DNA of 64,000 nt, taken from assembly GCA_049968755.1 (NCBI GenBank), contig JBMFQE010000005.1:18188-82187 (forward strand), read 5' to 3'. This stretch comes from Bacteroidales bacterium (lineage in GTDB: Bacteria > Bacteroidota > Bacteroidia > Bacteroidales > DTGW01). A program made the translations under genes and the position numbers. Under the pieces are notes generated by a model, which saw nothing but the letters and a program-made list of their open reading frames with translations, did not search any database and was not told the origin of the DNA. Of this stretch, positions 8,998 through 17,651 are shown in pieces (the first letter of the stretch is position 1; each line of letters opens with the position of its first letter).

Positions 8998-9930
8998 ATG
9001 GCCGTGGACACCAATGTGATAACTTTAGGGGAAGCGTTGCAGTATTTTCAGCAAGAAGTAGGGAGTTTATATCCTGAGCCGGAATTTCGTAGCATACGGC
9101 GCATCATGTTCGAGAAGTTGGCTCATGTCAATGCGGTGGATTTTCACCTCAAGCCACAACTTGAGATACCGAGGGAAACGTTCGAAAAAATTGTCGCTAC
9201 CACCGACAGACTTAAGAATTATGAGCCATTACAGTATATCCTTGGTAATGTTGATTTTATGGGATTGTCGTTGCGTATAACCCCTGCCGTTCTAATTCCC
9301 CGACCCGAAACCGAAGAACTGGTCGATTGGATTATTAAAACTCACAAGTTTAATGAAAATCGTATTCTTGATATTGGAACTGGTTCGGGTTGCATAGCCA
9401 TTGCGCTCGATAAGCTCATGATTCACTCGCAAACCGATGGAATCGATATCTCCGACGAAGCCCTTGAACTTGCTGAGGAAAATTCGTACATGAACGAAAG
9501 TATCGTCAACTTTTTTAATTACGATATTTTAGAGGGATTGTCGGGTAAAAATGCTCATTTGTTCAAAGAGTATTACGATATCATTGTGAGTAATCCTCCC
9601 TATGTGACTGAGAGCGAAAAAGCCATGATGCATCGTAATGTATTGGATTATGAACCACACATAGCCCTATTTGTCGAGGATGCTGATCCCTTGAAATTTT
9701 ACCGCGCTATTGCCGATTTTGCCCGCATTAAACTAGAGTGGGGCGGGTTTTTGTATTTTGAAATCAATCCCCGTTTTCATAAGGAGATTATGGAGATGCT
9801 ATCGTTAAAGGGTTTCAGAAATATTCAGTTGCGTAACGATATCAATGGTAAACCCCGAATGATTCGGGCACAAATCAAACTTTTCAAAAAAGGGGATAAT
9901 CCTGAGCTTGAAAAATTCAGGCAAATTTAA
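8998..9930 (+). CDS. prmC: peptide chain release factor N5-glutamine methyltransferase
   Basis: SAM-binding ILDIGTGSGCIA and catalytic NPPY (VSNPPYV). Confidence 0.9.
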   Translation: MAVDTNVITLGEALQYFQQEVGSLYPEPEFRSIRRIMFEKLAHVNAVDFHLKPQLEIPRETFEKIVATTDRLKNYEPLQYILGNVDFMGLSLRITPAVLIPRPETEELVDWIIKTHKFNENRILDIGTGSGCIAIALDKLMIHSQTDGIDISDEALELAEENSYMNESIVNFFNYDILEGLSGKNAHLFKEYYDIIVSNPPYVTESEKAMMHRNVLDYEPHIALFVEDADPLKFYRAIADFARIKLEWGGFLYFEINPRFHKEIMEMLSLKGFRNIQLRNDINGKPRMIRAQIKLFKKGDNPELEKFRQI

Positions 9931-9993
9931 TTTCACGTTGTTAATTTTAGCGATGGATGAATGACTGAGAAGAGATAAAACGATGTCAGTTGC

Positions 9994-10509
9994 TTATTGA
10001 GGTCTTTTTTTAATCACCATATTCAGGTTTCTATCGGTAGTGGCATTATCGCCAACGGCTCTATCAACGAGCAGTATGTTGATAATATTGTTGTTGCTGC
10101 TACGGGCTGAATCGAGGGTAAAACGGGTATTAAATCCGCATTCGGGCGAAATCATTTCGATTTTTCTTTGTGCAAACACATATAGGGTATCTACAGCTAT
10201 AGAGTCGAAGTAGAAGTAAAATACAGAGGTATCGCTTAGCTGCGAAAGGGGCAGTTGAAGCTGCTTAGCCGATGCCGAATCGTACAGCAATACGCCACTG
10301 GCGGTGGCAACACTTAAGTTACTCACTACAGTGTCGCTTAAGGTTCTTCTGGGGGTATATTGCATAAAATTAAGTTTTATGCTACGATTGGCAGTATACT
10401 TGCAGTCGGTGGTATCGGTGCAGCCTATCAGCATCCACGTTATAATCCCTGCCAGAATAGTATTACACCAATAATGCCTTTGTATCATATCGCTAATTTT
10501 AATATGCAC
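9994..10509 (-). CDS. hypothetical lipoprotein
   Basis: Lipobox-like WMLIGC near the N-terminus. No other motif recognised. It overlaps the upstream peptidase stop by 11 nt if the 10509 start is used. Confidence 0.6.
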   Translation of the reverse strand: MHIKISDMIQRHYWCNTILAGIITWMLIGCTDTTDCKYTANRSIKLNFMQYTPRRTLSDTVVSNLSVATASGVLLYDSASAKQLQLPLSQLSDTSVFYFYFDSIAVDTLYVFAQRKIEMISPECGFNTRFTLDSARSSNNNIINILLVDRAVGDNATTDRNLNMVIKKRPQ

Positions 10510-11812
10510 CTATTTCTGCCCTTATGCCCTGCCAGTTGGGTTTTTTAAAGATAATTTCGGTGGCCGATTTTTTGCGTGGAATAAAGCTGCCTGTTCGGAT
10601 AAAATGTATGGCCTGCCGCAAGCATAATTCCGATGTGTCGCCAAATGTGTGTGTAAGATCATCAAATTCGGCATAGTTGACCCCAATGCCTGCATATCCC
10701 GATGATTCCCCAAGGGCATTTTTCCATTCAAACATTACTGGTACGATGATGTAGTCTGAGTTTTTGATTTCAAGGGGAATCATGCCTACAGGTTTACCAT
10801 AGGTACGGGTACCGATAAGGTATGTTACAAGGTAGGGCTGGATCCCTTTTATCAGCGCTTCACTAGCCGAAGCCGTTTGTCCGGTGGTAATAAAGAACAC
10901 ACGCGTTAGCTGCTTGATGAGGCTGTTAGGTTTTTTGGCAAGGTAAGTAGTTTTCAGCGAGTCTTCAATGTATGGGTCGAGATCTGGATTGAAGGTTTCG
11001 CGGATAAACAGTTGCTGGTTGGCCTGTCGACCAATGATAAGATTGGCCAGATGATTGGCTGTGCTCAAACTACCCCCTGTATTGTATCGCAGATCCACCA
11101 CCAGTTCGTCGATGGAATAGTAATTAAAACTGCTAAAAACATCGTCGAGCTTGCCTTCGATATCGCTGCCCAGAAAGCTTTCCAGAGCCAGATAGCCTAT
11201 TTTTTTCCCTTCAATATCGATGACTGAGCTTGCCAGAATAGGGTTGATCGTAATACGCTCTTTTTGAAGGGAAATATTTTGTACCCGTCCCTGGTTGTCG
11301 ATAAATTCAAATTGATTGGTGACTATTGCAGTGCCATCGCCCACCAGTTCATTAAGCTGATCATAGCTGTAAACGTCGTTACCATTGACTTTCTTTAGTA
11401 TCCATCCACGCTGAATCCCTGCAGCAGAGGCCCAGGTGTTTTTAAACACATATCCTACCCGAATGTTGGCATATTCATCATAGGTAAACATAATGCCATG
11501 TCCGTAGAAGATGCCATTATTGAGGTTGTTAAATTCCTGTAATGTAACAATAAAACTCCAGCGATCGAGGGCAGTATATAGCAGATTGTAGAAGAATTGT
11601 TCAGGATTTACATCGGCTGTAGTGTCGACGCTTGAGGGTATTTTGTCATTCCACAGATATGCAGCTTGCATGTCGGCATATATTTCGCCTCGGATGCGGC
11701 TGGCGGTTATCTCTGTTGAGGTTTTGCCAGGATTTGTGTTATTGTTATCAGGCTCACAGGCTGAAATTAAAAGTAGTATACCCAGAAAGTATGGCCCATG
11801 TTTCAATTGCAT
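10499..11812 (-). CDS. S41 family (C-terminal processing type) serine peptidase, lipoprotein
   Basis: S41 core with TGQTASASEALIKG (nucleophile Ser region) and a PDZ-like middle part. The start was placed at MQLKHGPYFLGILLLISAC (lipoprotein signal). The ORF track extends to 11878. Confidence 0.8.
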   Translation of the reverse strand: MQLKHGPYFLGILLLISACEPDNNNTNPGKTSTEITASRIRGEIYADMQAAYLWNDKIPSSVDTTADVNPEQFFYNLLYTALDRWSFIVTLQEFNNLNNGIFYGHGIMFTYDEYANIRVGYVFKNTWASAAGIQRGWILKKVNGNDVYSYDQLNELVGDGTAIVTNQFEFIDNQGRVQNISLQKERITINPILASSVIDIEGKKIGYLALESFLGSDIEGKLDDVFSSFNYYSIDELVVDLRYNTGGSLSTANHLANLIIGRQANQQLFIRETFNPDLDPYIEDSLKTTYLAKKPNSLIKQLTRVFFITTGQTASASEALIKGIQPYLVTYLIGTRTYGKPVGMIPLEIKNSDYIIVPVMFEWKNALGESSGYAGIGVNYAEFDDLTHTFGDTSELCLRQAIHFIRTGSFIPRKKSATEIIFKKPNWQGIRAEIGAY

Positions 11813-11997
11813 AAGGTCCGTCTTTAAATTATTAATCAAAGAATTATAGCAGAGACACTTCACTGCAGGCTGATTCAAAGATAAAGTTTTTTTGAGTTTG
11901 CGTCAAATGCAAATCAAAATAATGTCCCCCCCCTATCGAGAAAATTTGGTGCTGTAAAAATTTGAAATTGAGTCCGCATTCGATTTTCCTTTCGAAC

Positions 11998-13332
11998 TTA
12001 TTCTTCCCAGCGTATTTCGAGGATGTGCTTTGTGTTGGACGAAATTTTATAACGTTCGTCAATTCGAAGTCCAATTACCCATACAATTTCCTCGCCGTTG
12101 GCCAGAATCCATATCCTTTCCTTCTGAATTCGCGATAGCTTAAGGTCGATGAAAAAGTCGCTGATTTTTTTGAAATGTTTCATGCCCAGAGGAATAAAAT
12201 AATCGCCTTTATTCCAGCGACGTAGAAGCAGGGGAAATACTAATTTATCGGCATCGAGGGCTGCAATGTGTTTTTCGGATTTAATCCTGTATGTCGAGCT
12301 TTCAAACATCTGGAAGGATAACCGAATGGGGGAGGTTAACTGTTGGGTATAGGATTCGATGTAATATAGCTGAGGTATATCTTTGTTTTCAAGGGTTTCG
12401 ATCAATAAAAATTCTCTATCCTTTATCAAGCGATGGGTAGGGGAGAAAAACTCTTTTCCGGGTTCAGCCTCCAATACCCGGAAGATATCTGCACACGTAT
12501 CGGGTGTAAATCTAAGAGGCAGCAGCAACTCAAGCAAAGCAAGGGGAGGGGAGGGCTGTTTTTTAATTTTTTCGATTGCAATAGCCATAACGCCATCGGG
12601 TAAGTGTTGGGGCAACTTTTTTATTTCGTGGTCGATATAGTGCTGGTATATTTTAGTTGCCTGCTGAATATTGGCTATGTTCCGCAGCATGGTATTACGG
12701 AAGGCAGGATTTAAGCGCTCAAGTGCTGGTATGACGTGATGCCGAATTTGGTTACGCAGGTATTTGTCGGTAAGATTGCTTGAATCGGTTCGAAAGGGGA
12801 TATTGTTTTCGGCACAATATTGTTCTATTTCGTTACGGAAGGCAAATAGCAGAGGACGAATGATTTTTCCATGGATCGGTTTTATGCCGGTCAAGCCCTT
12901 TAAACCTGTGCCCCTAATCAGGTTAACGAAGAAAGTTTCGATGCTGTCGTCGGCTTGGTGAGCAGTTGCTATATAAATAAAGCCATGAAGTTGACGGATG
13001 TTTTCGAAATAGCTATAACGTAGTTCGCGGGCAGCTTCCTGAATGGTTAACCCATGCTTTTGGGCATAGGCGAGGGTGTCAAATTTTTTTACAAAAATGG
13101 GTATTGATTCTTGTTCAGCCAGCTGGCTCACAAATGCTTCATCTTCATCCGATTCGGACCCGCGTAGCTGAAAGTTGCAATGTACAATTGCTATAGGCTG
13201 TCTCAGGGTATGCAACAGGTGTAACAGACACATTGAATCGGGTCCACCACTTACAGCAACAAGGATGTTATCGGTGGGAGAAACATGGCATACGTTGCGT
13301 AGGTATTGCTCAAATCGCTTTATCAGGCTCAT
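11998..13332 (-). CDS. tilS: tRNA(Ile)-lysidine synthase
   Basis: PP-loop SGGPDS at residues ~28-33 and a TilS C-terminal domain. The ATG overlaps the upstream TGA (ATGA). Confidence 0.93.
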   Translation of the reverse strand: MSLIKRFEQYLRNVCHVSPTDNILVAVSGGPDSMCLLHLLHTLRQPIAIVHCNFQLRGSESDEDEAFVSQLAEQESIPIFVKKFDTLAYAQKHGLTIQEAARELRYSYFENIRQLHGFIYIATAHQADDSIETFFVNLIRGTGLKGLTGIKPIHGKIIRPLLFAFRNEIEQYCAENNIPFRTDSSNLTDKYLRNQIRHHVIPALERLNPAFRNTMLRNIANIQQATKIYQHYIDHEIKKLPQHLPDGVMAIAIEKIKKQPSPPLALLELLLPLRFTPDTCADIFRVLEAEPGKEFFSPTHRLIKDREFLLIETLENKDIPQLYYIESYTQQLTSPIRLSFQMFESSTYRIKSEKHIAALDADKLVFPLLLRRWNKGDYFIPLGMKHFKKISDFFIDLKLSRIQKERIWILANGEEIVWVIGLRIDERYKISSNTKHILEIRWEE

Positions 13333-14441
13333 GGAGCAAATTGTTTGGTCGCATAAAAGATGTTGGTTGTATTTACCGCATCGGTGTCGCTATCGACTCG
13401 CAGAATCCAGTCACCATCAGTAGGCTGGGTACTGGAACCGTCGCCATTGCTGTCGCCTTTTAGACGGTCGTCGAAAAATGAGGTAAGCTGTACACCAGGT
13501 CCATACAGGTTAAGGATTGAATTCACGCCCGATGCAAGCCATAGGGTAGCGCCTCTCATAAATTTCAACGTCACATAATTGCCCAATGTAAAATATTCAT
13601 TTTCGGGAACCTGTAAGGTTGGACTTGCTATTACCAGTGCTACCTTGCTCTCGAGCCACTGGGGAGTATGCGATACCGGCTGGGTAGCATCAATAAAAAT
13701 TGCATTGTAACGATTGCGCTGTGAGGTATCTGAGGGGTTGTAAAAACGGTTGGTATTATCGATTGAAATAGAAGTATTGATAGCAAGGGGTATCTCATTA
13801 CCATAAAAAATGGATTGACTAATACGGGTCAGATAGTTTCCCTTTCGGGCATTTAGCGCACCTGCATAGTTTTCGGGCGTGCCACCTTTATTGAATGCAA
13901 AAGTACAGTAACGAATTTCGGCACTGCTGCTATCGAGGGTGAGTACCCCATTGCCGCCGTAAAGAAATAAAGTATAACCAAAAATGCAATGTTGCTTTGC
14001 TTTGATGATAATTCCTTCCCAGTCATTCGGGCGGGGCGTTGTGGCGTTTCCATCGCCATTATTGTCGCCGCCATGAAAATCGTCGTACAGCGAGGTGAAA
14101 ACAATGGGATAATTGGTGCTACCCTGGGCAGCTATCTGTCCGCTGTCGGCAATGGTCATGCTACGCCCATTGGCAGGGTCAAACTTGATGATGGTCCCCT
14201 TTTGTATGATCAAGGTGGCATTGACCATAAAATCAGCCTTGCGGATAATGTATATGTGCGTATTGTACCAGAAGGTAGCCGAATCGATATCGGCAGTAAC
14301 TTCCTTAACCGACATTTTTTCCTCCGGTTTATCTTCCTCGCAACCCCATGATAGCATTAAAGCGACTGCAGCTATAAGATAAATACTAAATGGTGTAACA
14401 AAACAGCCCCTGACAGGGGAAAATCGATGGCATCCTTTCAT
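13329..14441 (-). CDS. hypothetical lipoprotein with two homologous beta-rich modules, each ending in an Asp/Gly-rich NGDG loop
   Basis: Lipobox LSWGC. The internal repeat is IVFTSLYDDFHGGDNNGDGNATTPRPNDWEGI versus QLTSFFDDRLKGDSNGDGSSTQPTDGDWILRV. Confidence 0.7.
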   Translation of the reverse strand: MKGCHRFSPVRGCFVTPFSIYLIAAVALMLSWGCEEDKPEEKMSVKEVTADIDSATFWYNTHIYIIRKADFMVNATLIIQKGTIIKFDPANGRSMTIADSGQIAAQGSTNYPIVFTSLYDDFHGGDNNGDGNATTPRPNDWEGIIIKAKQHCIFGYTLFLYGGNGVLTLDSSSAEIRYCTFAFNKGGTPENYAGALNARKGNYLTRISQSIFYGNEIPLAINTSISIDNTNRFYNPSDTSQRNRYNAIFIDATQPVSHTPQWLESKVALVIASPTLQVPENEYFTLGNYVTLKFMRGATLWLASGVNSILNLYGPGVQLTSFFDDRLKGDSNGDGSSTQPTDGDWILRVDSDTDAVNTTNIFYATKQFAP

Positions 14442-14444
14442 TGA

Positions 14445-14894
14445 TCAATACTTTTTCAATCGGACATCGTAAATCCCCCCGCTGATTTGCCAGCAGGTGT
14501 TCTGACATCCAATTACTTTTTTAGCTTCAAACAGCCCACCGTCGACCGCCATAATGGTATCGTTGCCATTTTTGTAATGAGCAACAACGGAATAAAATTT
14601 ATCGGTAGCCACTTTGACGGTTACTTCTCCTTCGGTAAGGGTGTCGGCAAAGACGGTATCATCGGATTGATAAGGGTTGAATTTACTGGCATACACCTGT
14701 ACGGGTACTCGTTTATTCTCGTCGTTGATGGTGAGCTTAATTTTTATGCGGTCGGAGTCGGGATGCTCGGCTATGCAATTGATACAATAAAGATATTCAT
14801 CGGTCGTATTGCTGGTACAGCGAGTTAATCCGACGCCAATCGCAAATATTGCGATCATCAGAAACGATAGGCTGTGTTTTTTTGCTACTGCCAT
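14445..14894 (-). CDS. hypothetical small lipoprotein (Cys-containing, beta-rich)
   Basis: Signal peptide plus lipobox LTRC. It has CINC and CQNTC pairs. Its start overlaps the upstream gene end by 10 nt. Confidence 0.65.
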   Translation of the reverse strand: MAVAKKHSLSFLMIAIFAIGVGLTRCTSNTTDEYLYCINCIAEHPDSDRIKIKLTINDENKRVPVQVYASKFNPYQSDDTVFADTLTEGEVTVKVATDKFYSVVAHYKNGNDTIMAVDGGLFEAKKVIGCQNTCWQISGGIYDVRLKKY

Positions 14895-16327
14895 GGTTGA
14901 TAGCGTTTGTTGTCGAAATGGATTGATTTACCCAGATAGAGATTTACCCCAAAGTTGTAATGATGTGGAGAAACACCCCTAAATCCAAAGTCAAGATATT
15001 GATATGAGAAATAAAGCTTGACATTTCGGAAAATGTAGTAGTATCCTCCGTGGATAGCCCAGGTATTCTCTGTTGATGTGGGGAAAGATGACCCCCGGTA
15101 GCTGTGGTGCGAGGATACCCAACGAGCTCCGATAAATATACCCTGCAACGTGGAATTTTGTTTGTAGCGGAGCAGAAATTTCTTGTCCAATCCGGCGTAC
15201 CATAGGTAACGGCTTTCCCAGAACTGGTAGTAGTGACCAGATTGACCGGTTGGTACCAATATGCGAGTGGGGGTTAATCGTGCGAGGAATCCCGCAGATA
15301 GCTCAACATCGTAGCGAAAGTCGCGCAGGCCAACATTGGCACCCATCATGATGTGCTGAAAATTACCCAAAAATTCAGGCCCAATGCTCATTTGTCTGAA
15401 ATCGGGCCATATGCTTTGTCGGGCGCCGTTTGAGGTCAAAATTTCGCGAAGGAAAATATCGCTGTTGAAATAATTGGCAATGGTAAGTGGGGTCTCTGTT
15501 TTTCGGATTTTTAAATTTACATCGGCGCCTTTATCAACGAGATACTGGATGAGCTTTTCATCCTGCTTTTCGAGGGCTATGGTCAGAGCCGAATGTTTTT
15601 TTCGCGAAATGTGGTTAATGTTGGCGCCGTATTCGAGCAGCAAATCCATCATCGGGTAATTAGCGTTTGCAACAGCAACCAGGAATGGTGTAACTCCATG
15701 AATATCGGGCATATCGGGCGATATTCCCCGATTAAGTATATAATGGACAAAGTAGGGTCGGTTATGCATTACAGCTACCATCAGTGGGGTAATGCCAGAA
15801 GTATCGGCCTGCGTAAGATTGGCTCCCCAGCTAAGTAGCTTTTGAAAAACTACGGTGTCGTTCTGGGCTATCGCATACATTATGGGGGTGCGTCCCTGTT
15901 CATCTCCCGCATTAACGCTGGCACCCATGTTTACAAGCATTTCGGCAAGGATTGGCCGTTGAGCTTTTATGGCTACTATCAAGGGCGTGGGGCCGAATGA
16001 GGGCCGAAAATTTACATCAGCACCCCGAGCAATTAGATAGTTACATATGTTAGGCTGTCCCCCTTGAACCGCATATATGAGTGGCGTTATACTTTCATCG
16101 ATTACTGTATTAGGATTTATCCCTTTGTCGAGCAGTTGCTGAATCATCGGTAAATCGCCTTTTAATGAGGCGATAATCAAATTGTATTCATCGTCATCGG
16201 GTTCGTATGCCAGCGTATCGCCACGTTGAAAAGCATACCCACTCCCGTAAAAAAGCGCAAGCCATACAAATAAACAAATTGATACTTTTCGGGCAAACAT
16301 TAGGGTTGTTTTGTTACAAATGTACAT
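14885..16327 (-). CDS. ankyrin-repeat protein fused to a C-terminal outer-membrane beta-barrel-like domain
   Basis: Signal peptide (probable start at 16300, MFARKVSICLFVWLALFYGSGYA). Eight ANK repeats of ~33 aa (e.g. TPLIYAVQGGQPNICNYLIARGADVN, RTPIMYAIAQNDTVVFQKLLSWGANL). The last ~170 aa show alternating aromatic/Gly-rich beta-strand patterns (YYYIFRNVKLYFSYQYLDFGF). Confidence 0.8.
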   Translation of the reverse strand: MYICNKTTLMFARKVSICLFVWLALFYGSGYAFQRGDTLAYEPDDDEYNLIIASLKGDLPMIQQLLDKGINPNTVIDESITPLIYAVQGGQPNICNYLIARGADVNFRPSFGPTPLIVAIKAQRPILAEMLVNMGASVNAGDEQGRTPIMYAIAQNDTVVFQKLLSWGANLTQADTSGITPLMVAVMHNRPYFVHYILNRGISPDMPDIHGVTPFLVAVANANYPMMDLLLEYGANINHISRKKHSALTIALEKQDEKLIQYLVDKGADVNLKIRKTETPLTIANYFNSDIFLREILTSNGARQSIWPDFRQMSIGPEFLGNFQHIMMGANVGLRDFRYDVELSAGFLARLTPTRILVPTGQSGHYYQFWESRYLWYAGLDKKFLLRYKQNSTLQGIFIGARWVSSHHSYRGSSFPTSTENTWAIHGGYYYIFRNVKLYFSYQYLDFGFRGVSPHHYNFGVNLYLGKSIHFDNKRYQPWQ

Positions 16328-16510
16328 GAAAATATTCTATTTGCAAACTGACTCAATACCGGGTAAAGACTTTTTGTAGGTAGAATAAATCAGCTATTTT
16401 TATGATTTTCAGCTACTACTGATGAAGAAAATTTTGAGAAATAAGGGATACTGCTCGAGGGTTACGTTCCAATTGTAGTTTTTTGCTGTAACTTTCCCTT
16501 CGGGATCATT

Positions 16511-16615
16511 GATTTGCTATATTCCCATGCCCGGCTGCGTGATTTCCAACCATTTATGCGTTCAACCATTACATGGCAGACTATATTCGAACCCATCGGG
16601 GTCGTATGTTAATTG
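16511..16615. repeat. single copy of a degenerate intergenic repeat family (related to 63381-63573)
   Basis: It shares the exact 16-mer CGGGGTCGTATGTTAA (16597-16612 = 63539-63554). It also shares TTTGC..ATT(C/T)CCATGCCC and a CCATTACATGG/CATGTAATGG core. Confidence 0.7.
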
Positions 16616-16697
16616 TCTTTAGGAATATTCAAAAATTCTTTTTAACGTGGTCGTTTATATTGTAAGCCTTTTTATATTTTTGCCCAAAAACAAATAT

Positions 16698-17651
16698 ATG
16701 ACAGTAGCAGAGAAATTACGTACTACGCAAAAGACCCTGTTTTCTTTTGAATTGCTTCCCCCCTTAAAGGGCAGAAGTATTGACGAAATATATCGAGCCA
16801 TTGAGCCGCTAATTGAATTTGATCCACTCAATATAAATATTACCTACCATCAACGCGAAACCGTATATTATCCTTTGCCCGATGGTACCCTTGAAAAGCG
16901 TATAGTACGTAAACGTCCGGGCAATGTTGCGCTTTCGGCAGCCATACGTTTTAGGTACAATGTTACCGTTGTACCCCACGTTATTTGCGGAGGCCACACG
17001 AAGGATGATATAGAGGATTTGCTAATAGACTTTCATTTTCTTGAAATTCATAATTTGCTGCTATTGAGGGGGGATGCTCCAAAAGGACAAAAAATATTTG
17101 TGCCCGAGAAAAATGGCCATGCTCACACGGTGGAATTGGTTCGGCAGGTAATGGACATGAATGCAGGGCGGTATCTCGATAGCAATTTAAAGGACCCTCA
17201 GCCCACCAGTTTTAGTGTTGGCGTAGCCGGATATCCCGAAAAACATGTGGAAGCTCCAAACATGGAAACCGACCTTAAGTACCTGAAAGAGAAGATAGAT
17301 GCTGGAGCTGAATACATTGTTACTCAGTTGTTTTTCGATAATCAAAAATTTTTCGATTTTGTAAAGCGATGCCGGGCCCTGGGTATACAGGTGCCTATTG
17401 TGCCGGGCATAAAACCGCTGGCTACGCTCAATGATATCAAACTCGTACCTCAGATCTTTAGCTGCGATATTCCACAAGAATTTTATAAGGAACTGGAGAA
17501 ATGTCAGACCAATCAGCAGGTAAAGGAGGTAGGCATAGAGTGGGCCATCCAGCAAGGGAAGGAACTTAAGGCATTCGGAGTTCCCGCCATTCATTTTTAC
17601 ACTTACGGCATATCCGATAATGTAAAGCGTATTGCCAAAGCCCTTTTCTGA
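16698..17651 (+). CDS. metF: 5,10-methylenetetrahydrofolate reductase
   Basis: MetF family pattern (FSFELLPP, HxxCGG, LLLRGD, ITQLFFD). The start was placed at ATG 16698. The ORF track begins at 16647. Confidence 0.9.
   Translation: MTVAEKLRTTQKTLFSFELLPPLKGRSIDEIYRAIEPLIEFDPLNINITYHQRETVYYPLPDGTLEKRIVRKRPGNVALSAAIRFRYNVTVVPHVICGGHTKDDIEDLLIDFHFLEIHNLLLLRGDAPKGQKIFVPEKNGHAHTVELVRQVMDMNAGRYLDSNLKDPQPTSFSVGVAGYPEKHVEAPNMETDLKYLKEKIDAGAEYIVTQLFFDNQKFFDFVKRCRALGIQVPIVPGIKPLATLNDIKLVPQIFSCDIPQEFYKELEKCQTNQQVKEVGIEWAIQQGKELKAFGVPAIHFYTYGISDNVKRIAKALF

Follow-up and report, generated by a model that had tools for sequence, protein, structure and literature searches.

In bacteria, ankyrin repeats are known mostly from secreted effectors. 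AnkB of Pseudomonas aeruginosa is a periplasmic ankyrin protein; it is the partner of the catalase KatB and is encoded beside katB. In classical autotransporters, an N-terminal passenger is followed by a barrel in the outer membrane (OM) that has 12 strands in about 250 to 300 amino acids (aa) and a helical linker through the pore. The design of a small barrel joined to a periplasmic domain is known from proteins of the OmpA type, and AnkB is an example of an exported ankyrin protein. The envelope biology of Bacteroidota is itself under revision, notably with regard to how surface lipoproteins are exported and to a distinct BAM complex. Here, we describe a four-gene block in a 64,000-nucleotide (nt) stretch of DNA from a Bacteroidales bacterium (GenBank assembly GCA_049968755.1, contig JBMFQE010000005.1, positions 18,188 to 82,187), referred to below as the window. 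Three genes for exported proteins, designated A, B, and C, lie upstream of tilS, the gene for tRNA(Ile)-lysidine synthetase. A encodes a fusion of ankyrin repeats with a predicted OM barrel, B a small probable lipoprotein, and C a lipoprotein with a beta-helix-like fold. On balance, the block is probably a mosaic operon, composed of an old A-B pair, a separately widespread C, and a passenger tilS.

Conservation and distribution of A, B, C, and tilS

The conserved core of the block appears to be the A-B pair, because C occurs alone elsewhere and A-B occurs without C and tilS; C and tilS seem to have joined the pair in one Bacteroidales lineage only. At the A/B junction of the window, ccATGgcagTAG, the two genes overlap by 10 nt. 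Protein A ends in Q-P-W-Q-stop, and the ATG of B is embedded in the Pro-Trp codons (CCATGG), an arrangement which implies that translation of B is coupled to that of A. The same CCATGG junction, with an overlap of 7 or 10 nt, is present in related Bacteroidales loci (L001, L002, L005, L007, and L092/L093), and B follows A in every locus of this clade.

The co-occurrence of A and B is based on seven distant loci in addition to those of the clade. The distant A homologues share 25% to 32% identity with A of the window and have the same length and architecture. In L085/L086, L088, L089, and L090, a B homologue lies 3 to 22 nt after A; in L091, the called gap before it is longer. B thus follows A in five of the six testable distant loci. 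The neighbor of A in L085 shares 32% identity with B (BLASTP E value, 1e-21), and a hidden Markov model (HMM) of the B alignment scored the neighbors in L089, L090, and L091 with E values of 3e-41 to 3e-35. The P0058 contig, which is not among the six testable loci, has a 150-aa gene in the position after A. Neither C nor tilS was found at the distant A-B loci (L085/L086, L088 to L091, and the P0058 contig), and no neighbor is common to all of them. In L085 (5933-6946) and on the P0058 contig, a gene for a PD40/Tricorn-like beta-propeller protein of about 337 aa lies directly upstream of A in the same direction; its product could be an alternative third partner of A-B.

The distribution of C is much broader. 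When one genome per GTDB species was scanned, C-like genes turned up in at least 80 species from many phyla, including Chitinophagales, Saprospirales, Chlorobiota, Kapaibacteria, Cloacimonadota, Thermodesulfobacteriota, Nitrospirota, Planctomycetota, and Chloroflexota. Beyond the clade, none of the C-like genes has A, B, or tilS within 7 kb; they are surrounded by unrelated housekeeping genes (for example, those for a DEAD helicase, a fatty-acid hydroxylase, LysR, and biotin carboxylase) and have no conserved partner. The close family of C comprises 17 clusters in 5.8 billion proteins. The C homologues outside the clade are lipoproteins of about 370 aa that contain both copies of the repeated motif described below, and those of Chlorobiota, Saprospirales, and Thermodesulfobacteriota share 40% to 43% identity with C of the window, about the same as in-clade orthologues. 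Such conservation is unusually strong for a predicted surface lipoprotein. The most distant match of the first C search was a gene in a metagenome-assembled genome of Spirochaetia (L004:1577-2497; P0017), with 33% identity to C. It is flanked by AbiEii-like toxin genes and a gene for a GH94 phosphorylase. None of A, B, and tilS is nearby, and the product as annotated has no N-terminal signal.

Within the clade, the order A-B-C-tilS is found in at least six other Bacteroidales loci (L001, L002/L008, L005, L006, L007, L092/L093, and the P0011 contig), with identities to the window of 40% to 75% for C, 47% to 64% for tilS, and 29% to 78% for the barrel domain of A. The flanking genes differ, being a SAM hydroxide adenosyltransferase and an IMS-family polymerase, a PAS kinase and an SAICAR synthase, or, in the window, metF and an S41 peptidase. 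Because the order is kept while the flanks differ, the arrangement appears to have survived extensive rearrangement around it. The intergenic distances vary as well. B and C are separated by 3 nt in the window, by 7 nt in L092, and, in L001, L002, and the P0011 contig, by 95 to 257 nt; C and tilS are joined by ATGA or 7-nt junctions in the window, L001, and L092 and are 64 to 248 nt apart in other clade members. In three clade members (L002:874-5635, L092:1683-5547, and the P0011 contig), the opposite strand upstream of A encodes a large PAS-domain sensor kinase/response regulator and a protein of about 338 aa with a Por_Secre_tail, the sorting domain of the type IX secretion system (T9SS); the window has metF in this place. 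No Por_Secre_tail domain is present in A, B, or C, and a role for them as T9SS cargo was rejected.

A sequence-only reading of the window had inferred that the three upstream genes encode a constitutively made envelope complex, and it named their independent occurrence in other genomes as an observation that would refute this. The three genes stay together upstream of tilS in the clade loci; beyond them, C stands alone in many phyla and A-B is found without C and tilS. The idea of a single inseparable A-B-C locus is thereby contradicted in part. The view that the three products form one dedicated envelope complex, a barrel with a periplasmic scaffold and two lipoproteins, is fairly unlikely. 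In it, C would be an integral part, perhaps as a surface lipoprotein that A-B holds or handles. This view agrees with the export of all three proteins, with the short B/C spacing in the window and L092, and with the preservation of the A-B-C order in every clade locus examined, down to 40% identity for C, while the flanks change. However, it does not fit the C family, whose members stand alone, away from any A or B, in many phyla and in further orders of Bacteroidota, the six distant A-B loci without C, or the wide gaps between B and C in three clade members. In addition, the similar identities of C to in-clade orthologues and to homologues of other phyla suggest that C has an unchanged, independent function.

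Several points weigh against the mosaic operon. C has been kept between B and tilS down to 40% identity, and this retention may reflect a true functional link instead of inertia. Moreover, one distant A (L087) is followed by other genes and has no B homologue, and contacts among A, B, and C are hypothetical.

A second alternative concerns tilS, namely, that the envelope proteins and lysidine synthesis are co-regulated for a shared purpose. What speaks for a functional tie is adjacency: in all clade loci, tilS is the gene next after C, with the tight junctions in the window, L001, and L092 mentioned above. However, TilS enzymes modify tRNA in the cytoplasm and are not known to have an envelope role, both A-B and C are found elsewhere without tilS, the gap upstream of tilS is wide in other clade members, and L001 has a possible internal promoter before the gene. 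Tight operon packing with a housekeeping gene is by itself no proof of shared function, and this alternative is considered extremely improbable. The mosaic operon, with tilS most likely as a passenger, is the preferred interpretation.

Protein A is a fusion of ankyrin repeats and a predicted OM barrel

The N terminus of A reads as a signal peptide of the signal-peptidase-I type, with cleavage between MFARKVSICLFVWLALFYGSGYA and FQ. A hydrophobic N terminus is present in 29 of the 29 aligned homologues, and the AlphaFold model built on these 29 homologues (pLDDT, 88.2) has a helix at residues 2 to 19 followed by a low-confidence linker. The repeats that follow match Pfam PF12796 (Ank_2) with an E value of 1.2e-59 and a score of 199 bits (cut-off, 27.3), and the model contains eight helix pairs with a 33-residue spacing. 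Foldseek searches with the whole model returned ankyrin and DARPin matches (E value, 1e-17). Matches of A to the NCBIfam MzaA and Legionella Ank families lie far below the cut-offs and are due to the ankyrin repeats, and all three proteins are exported; a defense-system reading was therefore rejected.

The C-terminal domain of about 170 aa was assigned to strands 301-312, 317-327, 332-350, 357-380, 384-401, 410-424, 427-435, and 446-456 by DSSP, and a short C-terminal helix follows. The turns on the side of the termini have 2 to 4 residues (328-331, 381-383, and 425-426), and three of the four loops on the opposite side are longer, with 6 to 10 residues (351-356, 402-409, and 436-445). Averaged over 19 family members, hydrophobic faces alternate with faces of small or polar residues (Gly, Ser, Asn, and Gln) in eight of eight strands, and the composition is 19% aromatic (F+Y+W) and 9% Gly. 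The strands are 9 to 24 residues long, the aromatic C-terminal tail (Y-x-P-W) is conserved, and so are four charged residues (R341, E362, R364, and K373). Because the model is confident, the pattern alternates, and aromatic residues make up 19%, these features indicate that the domain is an eight-stranded integral OM barrel with predicted closure. The even number of strands and the short turns on the side of the termini would place the ankyrin array in the periplasm.

Two observations count against this assignment. DSSP lists nine elements in residues 301 to 456, which become eight only if 332-341 and 345-350 are merged as one kinked strand, and the ankyrin and DARPin matches, the only ones returned for the whole model, swamped a comparison of the barrel with solved barrels.

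Two other folds for this region were weighed. A soluble lipocalin-like barrel of eight strands, with A then being an ankyrin protein dissolved in the periplasm, agrees in size, with eight strands in about 170 aa and a short C-terminal helix. Nevertheless, one face hydrophobic or aromatic and the other small or polar in all eight strands across the family, together with the strand lengths, the aromatic content, and the conserved Y-x-P-W tail, is the pattern of a membrane barrel and not of a lipocalin core, so that a lipocalin-like domain is scarcely credible. A could also resemble a type Va autotransporter, in which an N-terminal functional domain precedes a C-terminal OM barrel that exports it; the ankyrin repeats, which are classic binding modules, would then be carried to the surface as an adhesin or interaction module. 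However, A has only eight strand elements in about 170 aa and no preceding helical linker, it matches no autotransporter or other barrel family in Pfam, and its conserved charged residues, which may face inward, are like those that occupy the lumen in solved eight-stranded barrels. Export of the repeats in this way is considered very unlikely, and an anchoring OM barrel remains the favored reading.

The barrel has no counterpart in the family collections searched. Pfam searches with 19 family members at E values up to 10 gave scattered noise, with OMP_b-brl touched by 1 of the 19 (E value, 0.02); the barrel profile had no match to PDB sequences at E values up to 10, and a word-index search with the C-terminal 185 aa of A returned nothing. 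In a phmmer search of 1.84 billion representatives at E values up to 1e-3, by contrast, the barrel was found in 202 clusters at 50% identity. Nearly all of these proteins have 450 to 500 aa with the domain at the C terminus, and ankyrin repeats precede it in all 10 clusters sampled, shorter and longer ones included. A literature search found no description of an ankyrin-barrel fusion.

Proteins B and C

Both B and C have a signal peptide that ends in a lipobox with an invariant or nearly invariant Cys. In B, a hydrophobic stretch, which forms an N-terminal helix in the AlphaFold model, ends in Cys26, a residue invariant in eight homologues. Cys37, Cys130, and Cys134 are also invariant in these eight, and a fourth Cys (Cys40 in the window) is present in eight of eight at a variable position. 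B is thus a probable lipoprotein, with Cys26 as the lipidation candidate, and its four conserved Cys residues suggest an exported protein that is probably stabilized by disulfides. The assignment is less certain than that of C, and two features tell against it: the lipobox LTRC is atypical at position -1, where several members have R or Q, and the acidic residues lie farther from Cys26 than the spacing of the export signal described below, leaving a weak resemblance to it. B had no match in Pfam, NCBIfam, or PDB, and a Pfam scan of all alignment members at E values up to 10 gave noise. A relationship with the neighboring DUF6452 lipoprotein was rejected (hhalign probability, 0.3%).

In C, a hydrophobic helix (residues 12 to 31) is followed by Cys34, and this Cys column is kept in nearly all homologues. 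The 370-aa start is backed by the N terminus and Cys that homologues conserve, and one NCBI record likewise gives 370 aa. Another NCBI record (MGC8824342.1), from a contig with identical A and B, gives C as 328 aa starting at Met43, without the signal peptide and Cys34. The export signal of Bacteroidota surface lipoproteins consists of acidic residues at about +3 to +5 after the Cys, as in K-(D/E)2, SDDDD, or SDDFE (PMC5080379). The residues after Cys34 are EEDKPEE, and homologues in other Bacteroidota (Chitinophagales relatives) have KKDED, KKDDN, or KKEDD, corresponding to C-KK(D/E)(D/E). Because its acidic N terminus resembles this signal, C is probably displayed on the cell surface.

The AlphaFold model of C is all-beta (pLDDT, 90.1). 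Foldseek matches to PDB and viral models were weak (best E value, 0.087; TM-scores, 0.2 to 0.3), and almost all were right-handed beta-helix proteins, such as fucoidan and alginate lyases, AlgG, pectate lyases, and tailspikes. No Pfam or NCBIfam family exceeded its cut-off in C. Pfam Beta_helix (PF13229) scored 15.5 bits (cut-off, 25.9), and a longer homologue (L018) scored 32.4 bits, above the cut-off. Four C homologues have a precomputed PF28492 match, which is rated in a single contig listing and there as faint. The model of C thus suggests a fold like that of a right-handed beta-helix. The C family has 35 invariant residues and an internal repeat (E value, 7e-8), whose motif is present twice in most members. 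Its DxNxDG-type loops may be calcium-binding sites.

Gene organization, transcription signals, and neighboring genes

The coordinates of the block are given in Table 1. As the sequence-only reading had described, the four genes are co-directional on the minus strand and tightly packed, with a 3-nt gap at the B/C junction (TGAtcaATG) and an ATGA overlap of the C stop and the tilS start (ccATGAgc), in addition to the A/B overlap. Its identification of tilS agrees with matches to TIGR02432 (190.9 bits; cut-off, 93.6; E value, 2e-56), to the PP-loop ATPase domain PF01171 (E value, 5e-54), and, for the C-terminal domain, to TIGR02433 (34.8 bits; cut-off, 20.2) and PF11734. The same reading found export signals in A, B, and C and no pathway to which they could be assigned; the signals are present by sequence, that of B with its atypical -1 position, and Pfam, NCBIfam, and PDB searches yielded no known pathway, the ankyrin repeats of A being the only family match above its cut-off. 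Its arguments for a tight, probably single transcription unit and against a recently acquired island also stood up, the former from the promoter motifs at the two ends and the latter from an even G+C content (0.42 to 0.47 over the block and its neighbors) and the order conserved in divergent Bacteroidales loci with different flanks.

Bacteroidetes promoters are reported (Bayley et al. 2000) to follow the consensus -33 TTTG / -7 TAnnTTTG. Scanning of the minus strand of positions 9800 to 16800 for this pattern gave exactly two full motifs, one before A and one after tilS, with a single -7-only match, at 13905, between them. The motif before A would place a transcription start near 16310, and TACATTTG with a -33 TTTG is present at the equivalent position before A in the closest relative (L005). 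The start codon of A is most likely the ATG at 16300, as called by NCBI (P0018; 100% identical, 471 aa), since the alternative ATG at 16327 abuts the promoter motif. The motif after tilS is probably the 3' limit of the transcription unit. A sigma-70 promoter scan was uninformative (22 sites versus 16 expected, which is chance level), terminator-like sites numbered 7 (7.4 expected from shuffled sequences), and no Rfam element was matched in positions 9800 to 17000. A G+C-rich hairpin, CCCCTGTCAGGGG, with a T-rich tail at 14407-14419 on the minus strand, 22 nt into C, was rejected as a terminator and is probably due to chance, because the site count equals the shuffled expectation and the signal-peptide residues of C that it encodes are not conserved.

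With tight junctions, promoter motifs at the ends only, terminators at the chance rate, and a conserved order, A-B-C-tilS is probably one transcription unit. Constitutive expression, as the sequence-only reading had proposed, would be consistent with the lack of a recognizable separate tilS promoter in the window. On the other side, the promoter evidence consists of pattern matches, and L001 has a full motif 147 nt upstream of tilS, inside C; tilS may therefore have its own promoter in some relatives.

Downstream of tilS, genes for an S41 peptidase and a DUF6452 lipoprotein overlap by 11 nt (9994-11878, minus strand). The peptidase belongs to the GFO_1087 family (NCBIfam NF058627; 230 bits, below the cut-off). 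These genes are a probable second envelope pair and are not conserved beside tilS in related loci. On the other side of the block, an intergenic region of about 350 bp (16301-16646) with no Rfam match separates A from the divergent metF (16647-17651, plus strand), whose open reading frame (ORF) is listed from a GTG well upstream of the likely ATG (MTVAEK...).

Table 1. Features of the A-B-C-tilS block and its flanks in the window
Feature	Position	Strand	Description
Gene A	14885..16300	-	471 aa from ATG 16300; ORF open to 16327
Signal peptide of A	16232..16300	-	aa 1-23, MFARKVSICLFVWLALFYGSGYA; predicted signal-peptidase-I type
Eight ankyrin repeats of A	15431..16192	-	aa 37-290; predicted periplasmic
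C-terminal barrel of A	14888..15409	-	aa 298-471; predicted, DSSP of model
A/B overlap	14885..14894	-	ATG of B inside Pro-Trp codons of A (CC-ATG-G)
Gene B	14445..14894	-	149 aa; small probable lipoprotein
Gene C	13329..14441	-	370 aa; lipoprotein with predicted beta-helix-like fold
Motif copy 1 in C	14019..14099	-	aa 115-141, FTSxxDDxxGGDxNxDGxxTxPxxDW; invariant columns
Motif copy 2 in C	13407..13484	-	aa 320-345, FTSxxDDxxG(G)DxNxDGxxTxPxxDW
tilS	11998..13332	-	tRNA(Ile)-lysidine synthetase, 444 aa
Promoter motif before A	16317..16347	-	-33 TTTG at 16347-16344, 19-nt spacer, -7 TACATTTG at 16324-16317; pattern match
Promoter motif before S41 peptidase gene	11876..11906	-	-7 TATCTTTG at 11883-11876 and -33 TTTG; pattern match

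Proposed roles of the four products and comparison with known systems

In the proposed mosaic operon, A and B would form an old, obligately paired module. The eight-stranded barrel at the C terminus of A would anchor the protein in the OM, and the eight ankyrin repeats would hang in the periplasm as a protein-binding platform. Since its translation is coupled to that of A, B is most likely the stoichiometric partner of A, and it may bind either the ankyrin groove or the long external hairpins of the barrel. C would have been captured beside A-B in one Bacteroidales lineage, where it may work with the pair; elsewhere it would need neither A nor B. TilS would be a cytoplasmic housekeeping passenger on the same promoter, so that A-B-C would be transcribed whenever tilS is needed.

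An ankyrin array tethered under the OM by its own barrel and always accompanied by a partner lipoprotein would be a new design of periplasmic binding platform. A bolder proposal is that A-B is an undescribed envelope module of Bacteroidota, consisting of a barrel that occurs only as an ankyrin fusion and a dedicated Cys-rich lipoprotein, and that in this lineage it holds or handles the surface lipoprotein C. We regard this as rather unlikely; if true, it would represent a new kind of periplasmic scaffold, anchored in the OM and connected with the biology of surface lipoproteins. Together, the barrel domain, B, and C represent three unannotated families without Pfam or NCBIfam coverage, and the present analysis shows which of them belong together.

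The predicted fold of C is closest to the right-handed beta-helix proteins (the pectate-lyase superfamily, PL6 alginate lyases, the AlgG epimerase, and phage tailspikes), with which it shares an all-beta model and which are its best Foldseek class. C differs from them in that it has no structural match with an E value below 0.08, no catalytic signature was identified in it, and the DxNxDG loops are specific to its family. Like the Bacteroidota surface lipoproteins (Lauber et al. 2016, PMC5080379), C has a Cys followed by K, S, or E and an acidic run. Unlike them, it is encoded outside a Sus-like locus and has no adjacent TonB-dependent transporter, and its exposure is predicted.

A resembles AnkB in being a bacterial ankyrin protein that would work in the cell envelope and not as a secreted effector. 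AnkB, however, is small and has no barrel domain, and no catalase gene was found near A in the window, L001, L002, or the P0011 contig. The barrel of A has no sequence match to any barrel family, which sets it apart from the OmpA-, OmpX-, and OmpW-like families. In design, A is similar to OmpA-type proteins (Escherichia coli OmpA and the OmpA-like proteins of Bacteroidota), in which a small eight-stranded OM barrel serves as an anchor, not a channel, and is joined to a periplasmic domain. In A, by contrast, this order would be reversed, with the predicted barrel at the C terminus and an ankyrin array in place of the peptidoglycan-binding OmpA_C domain.

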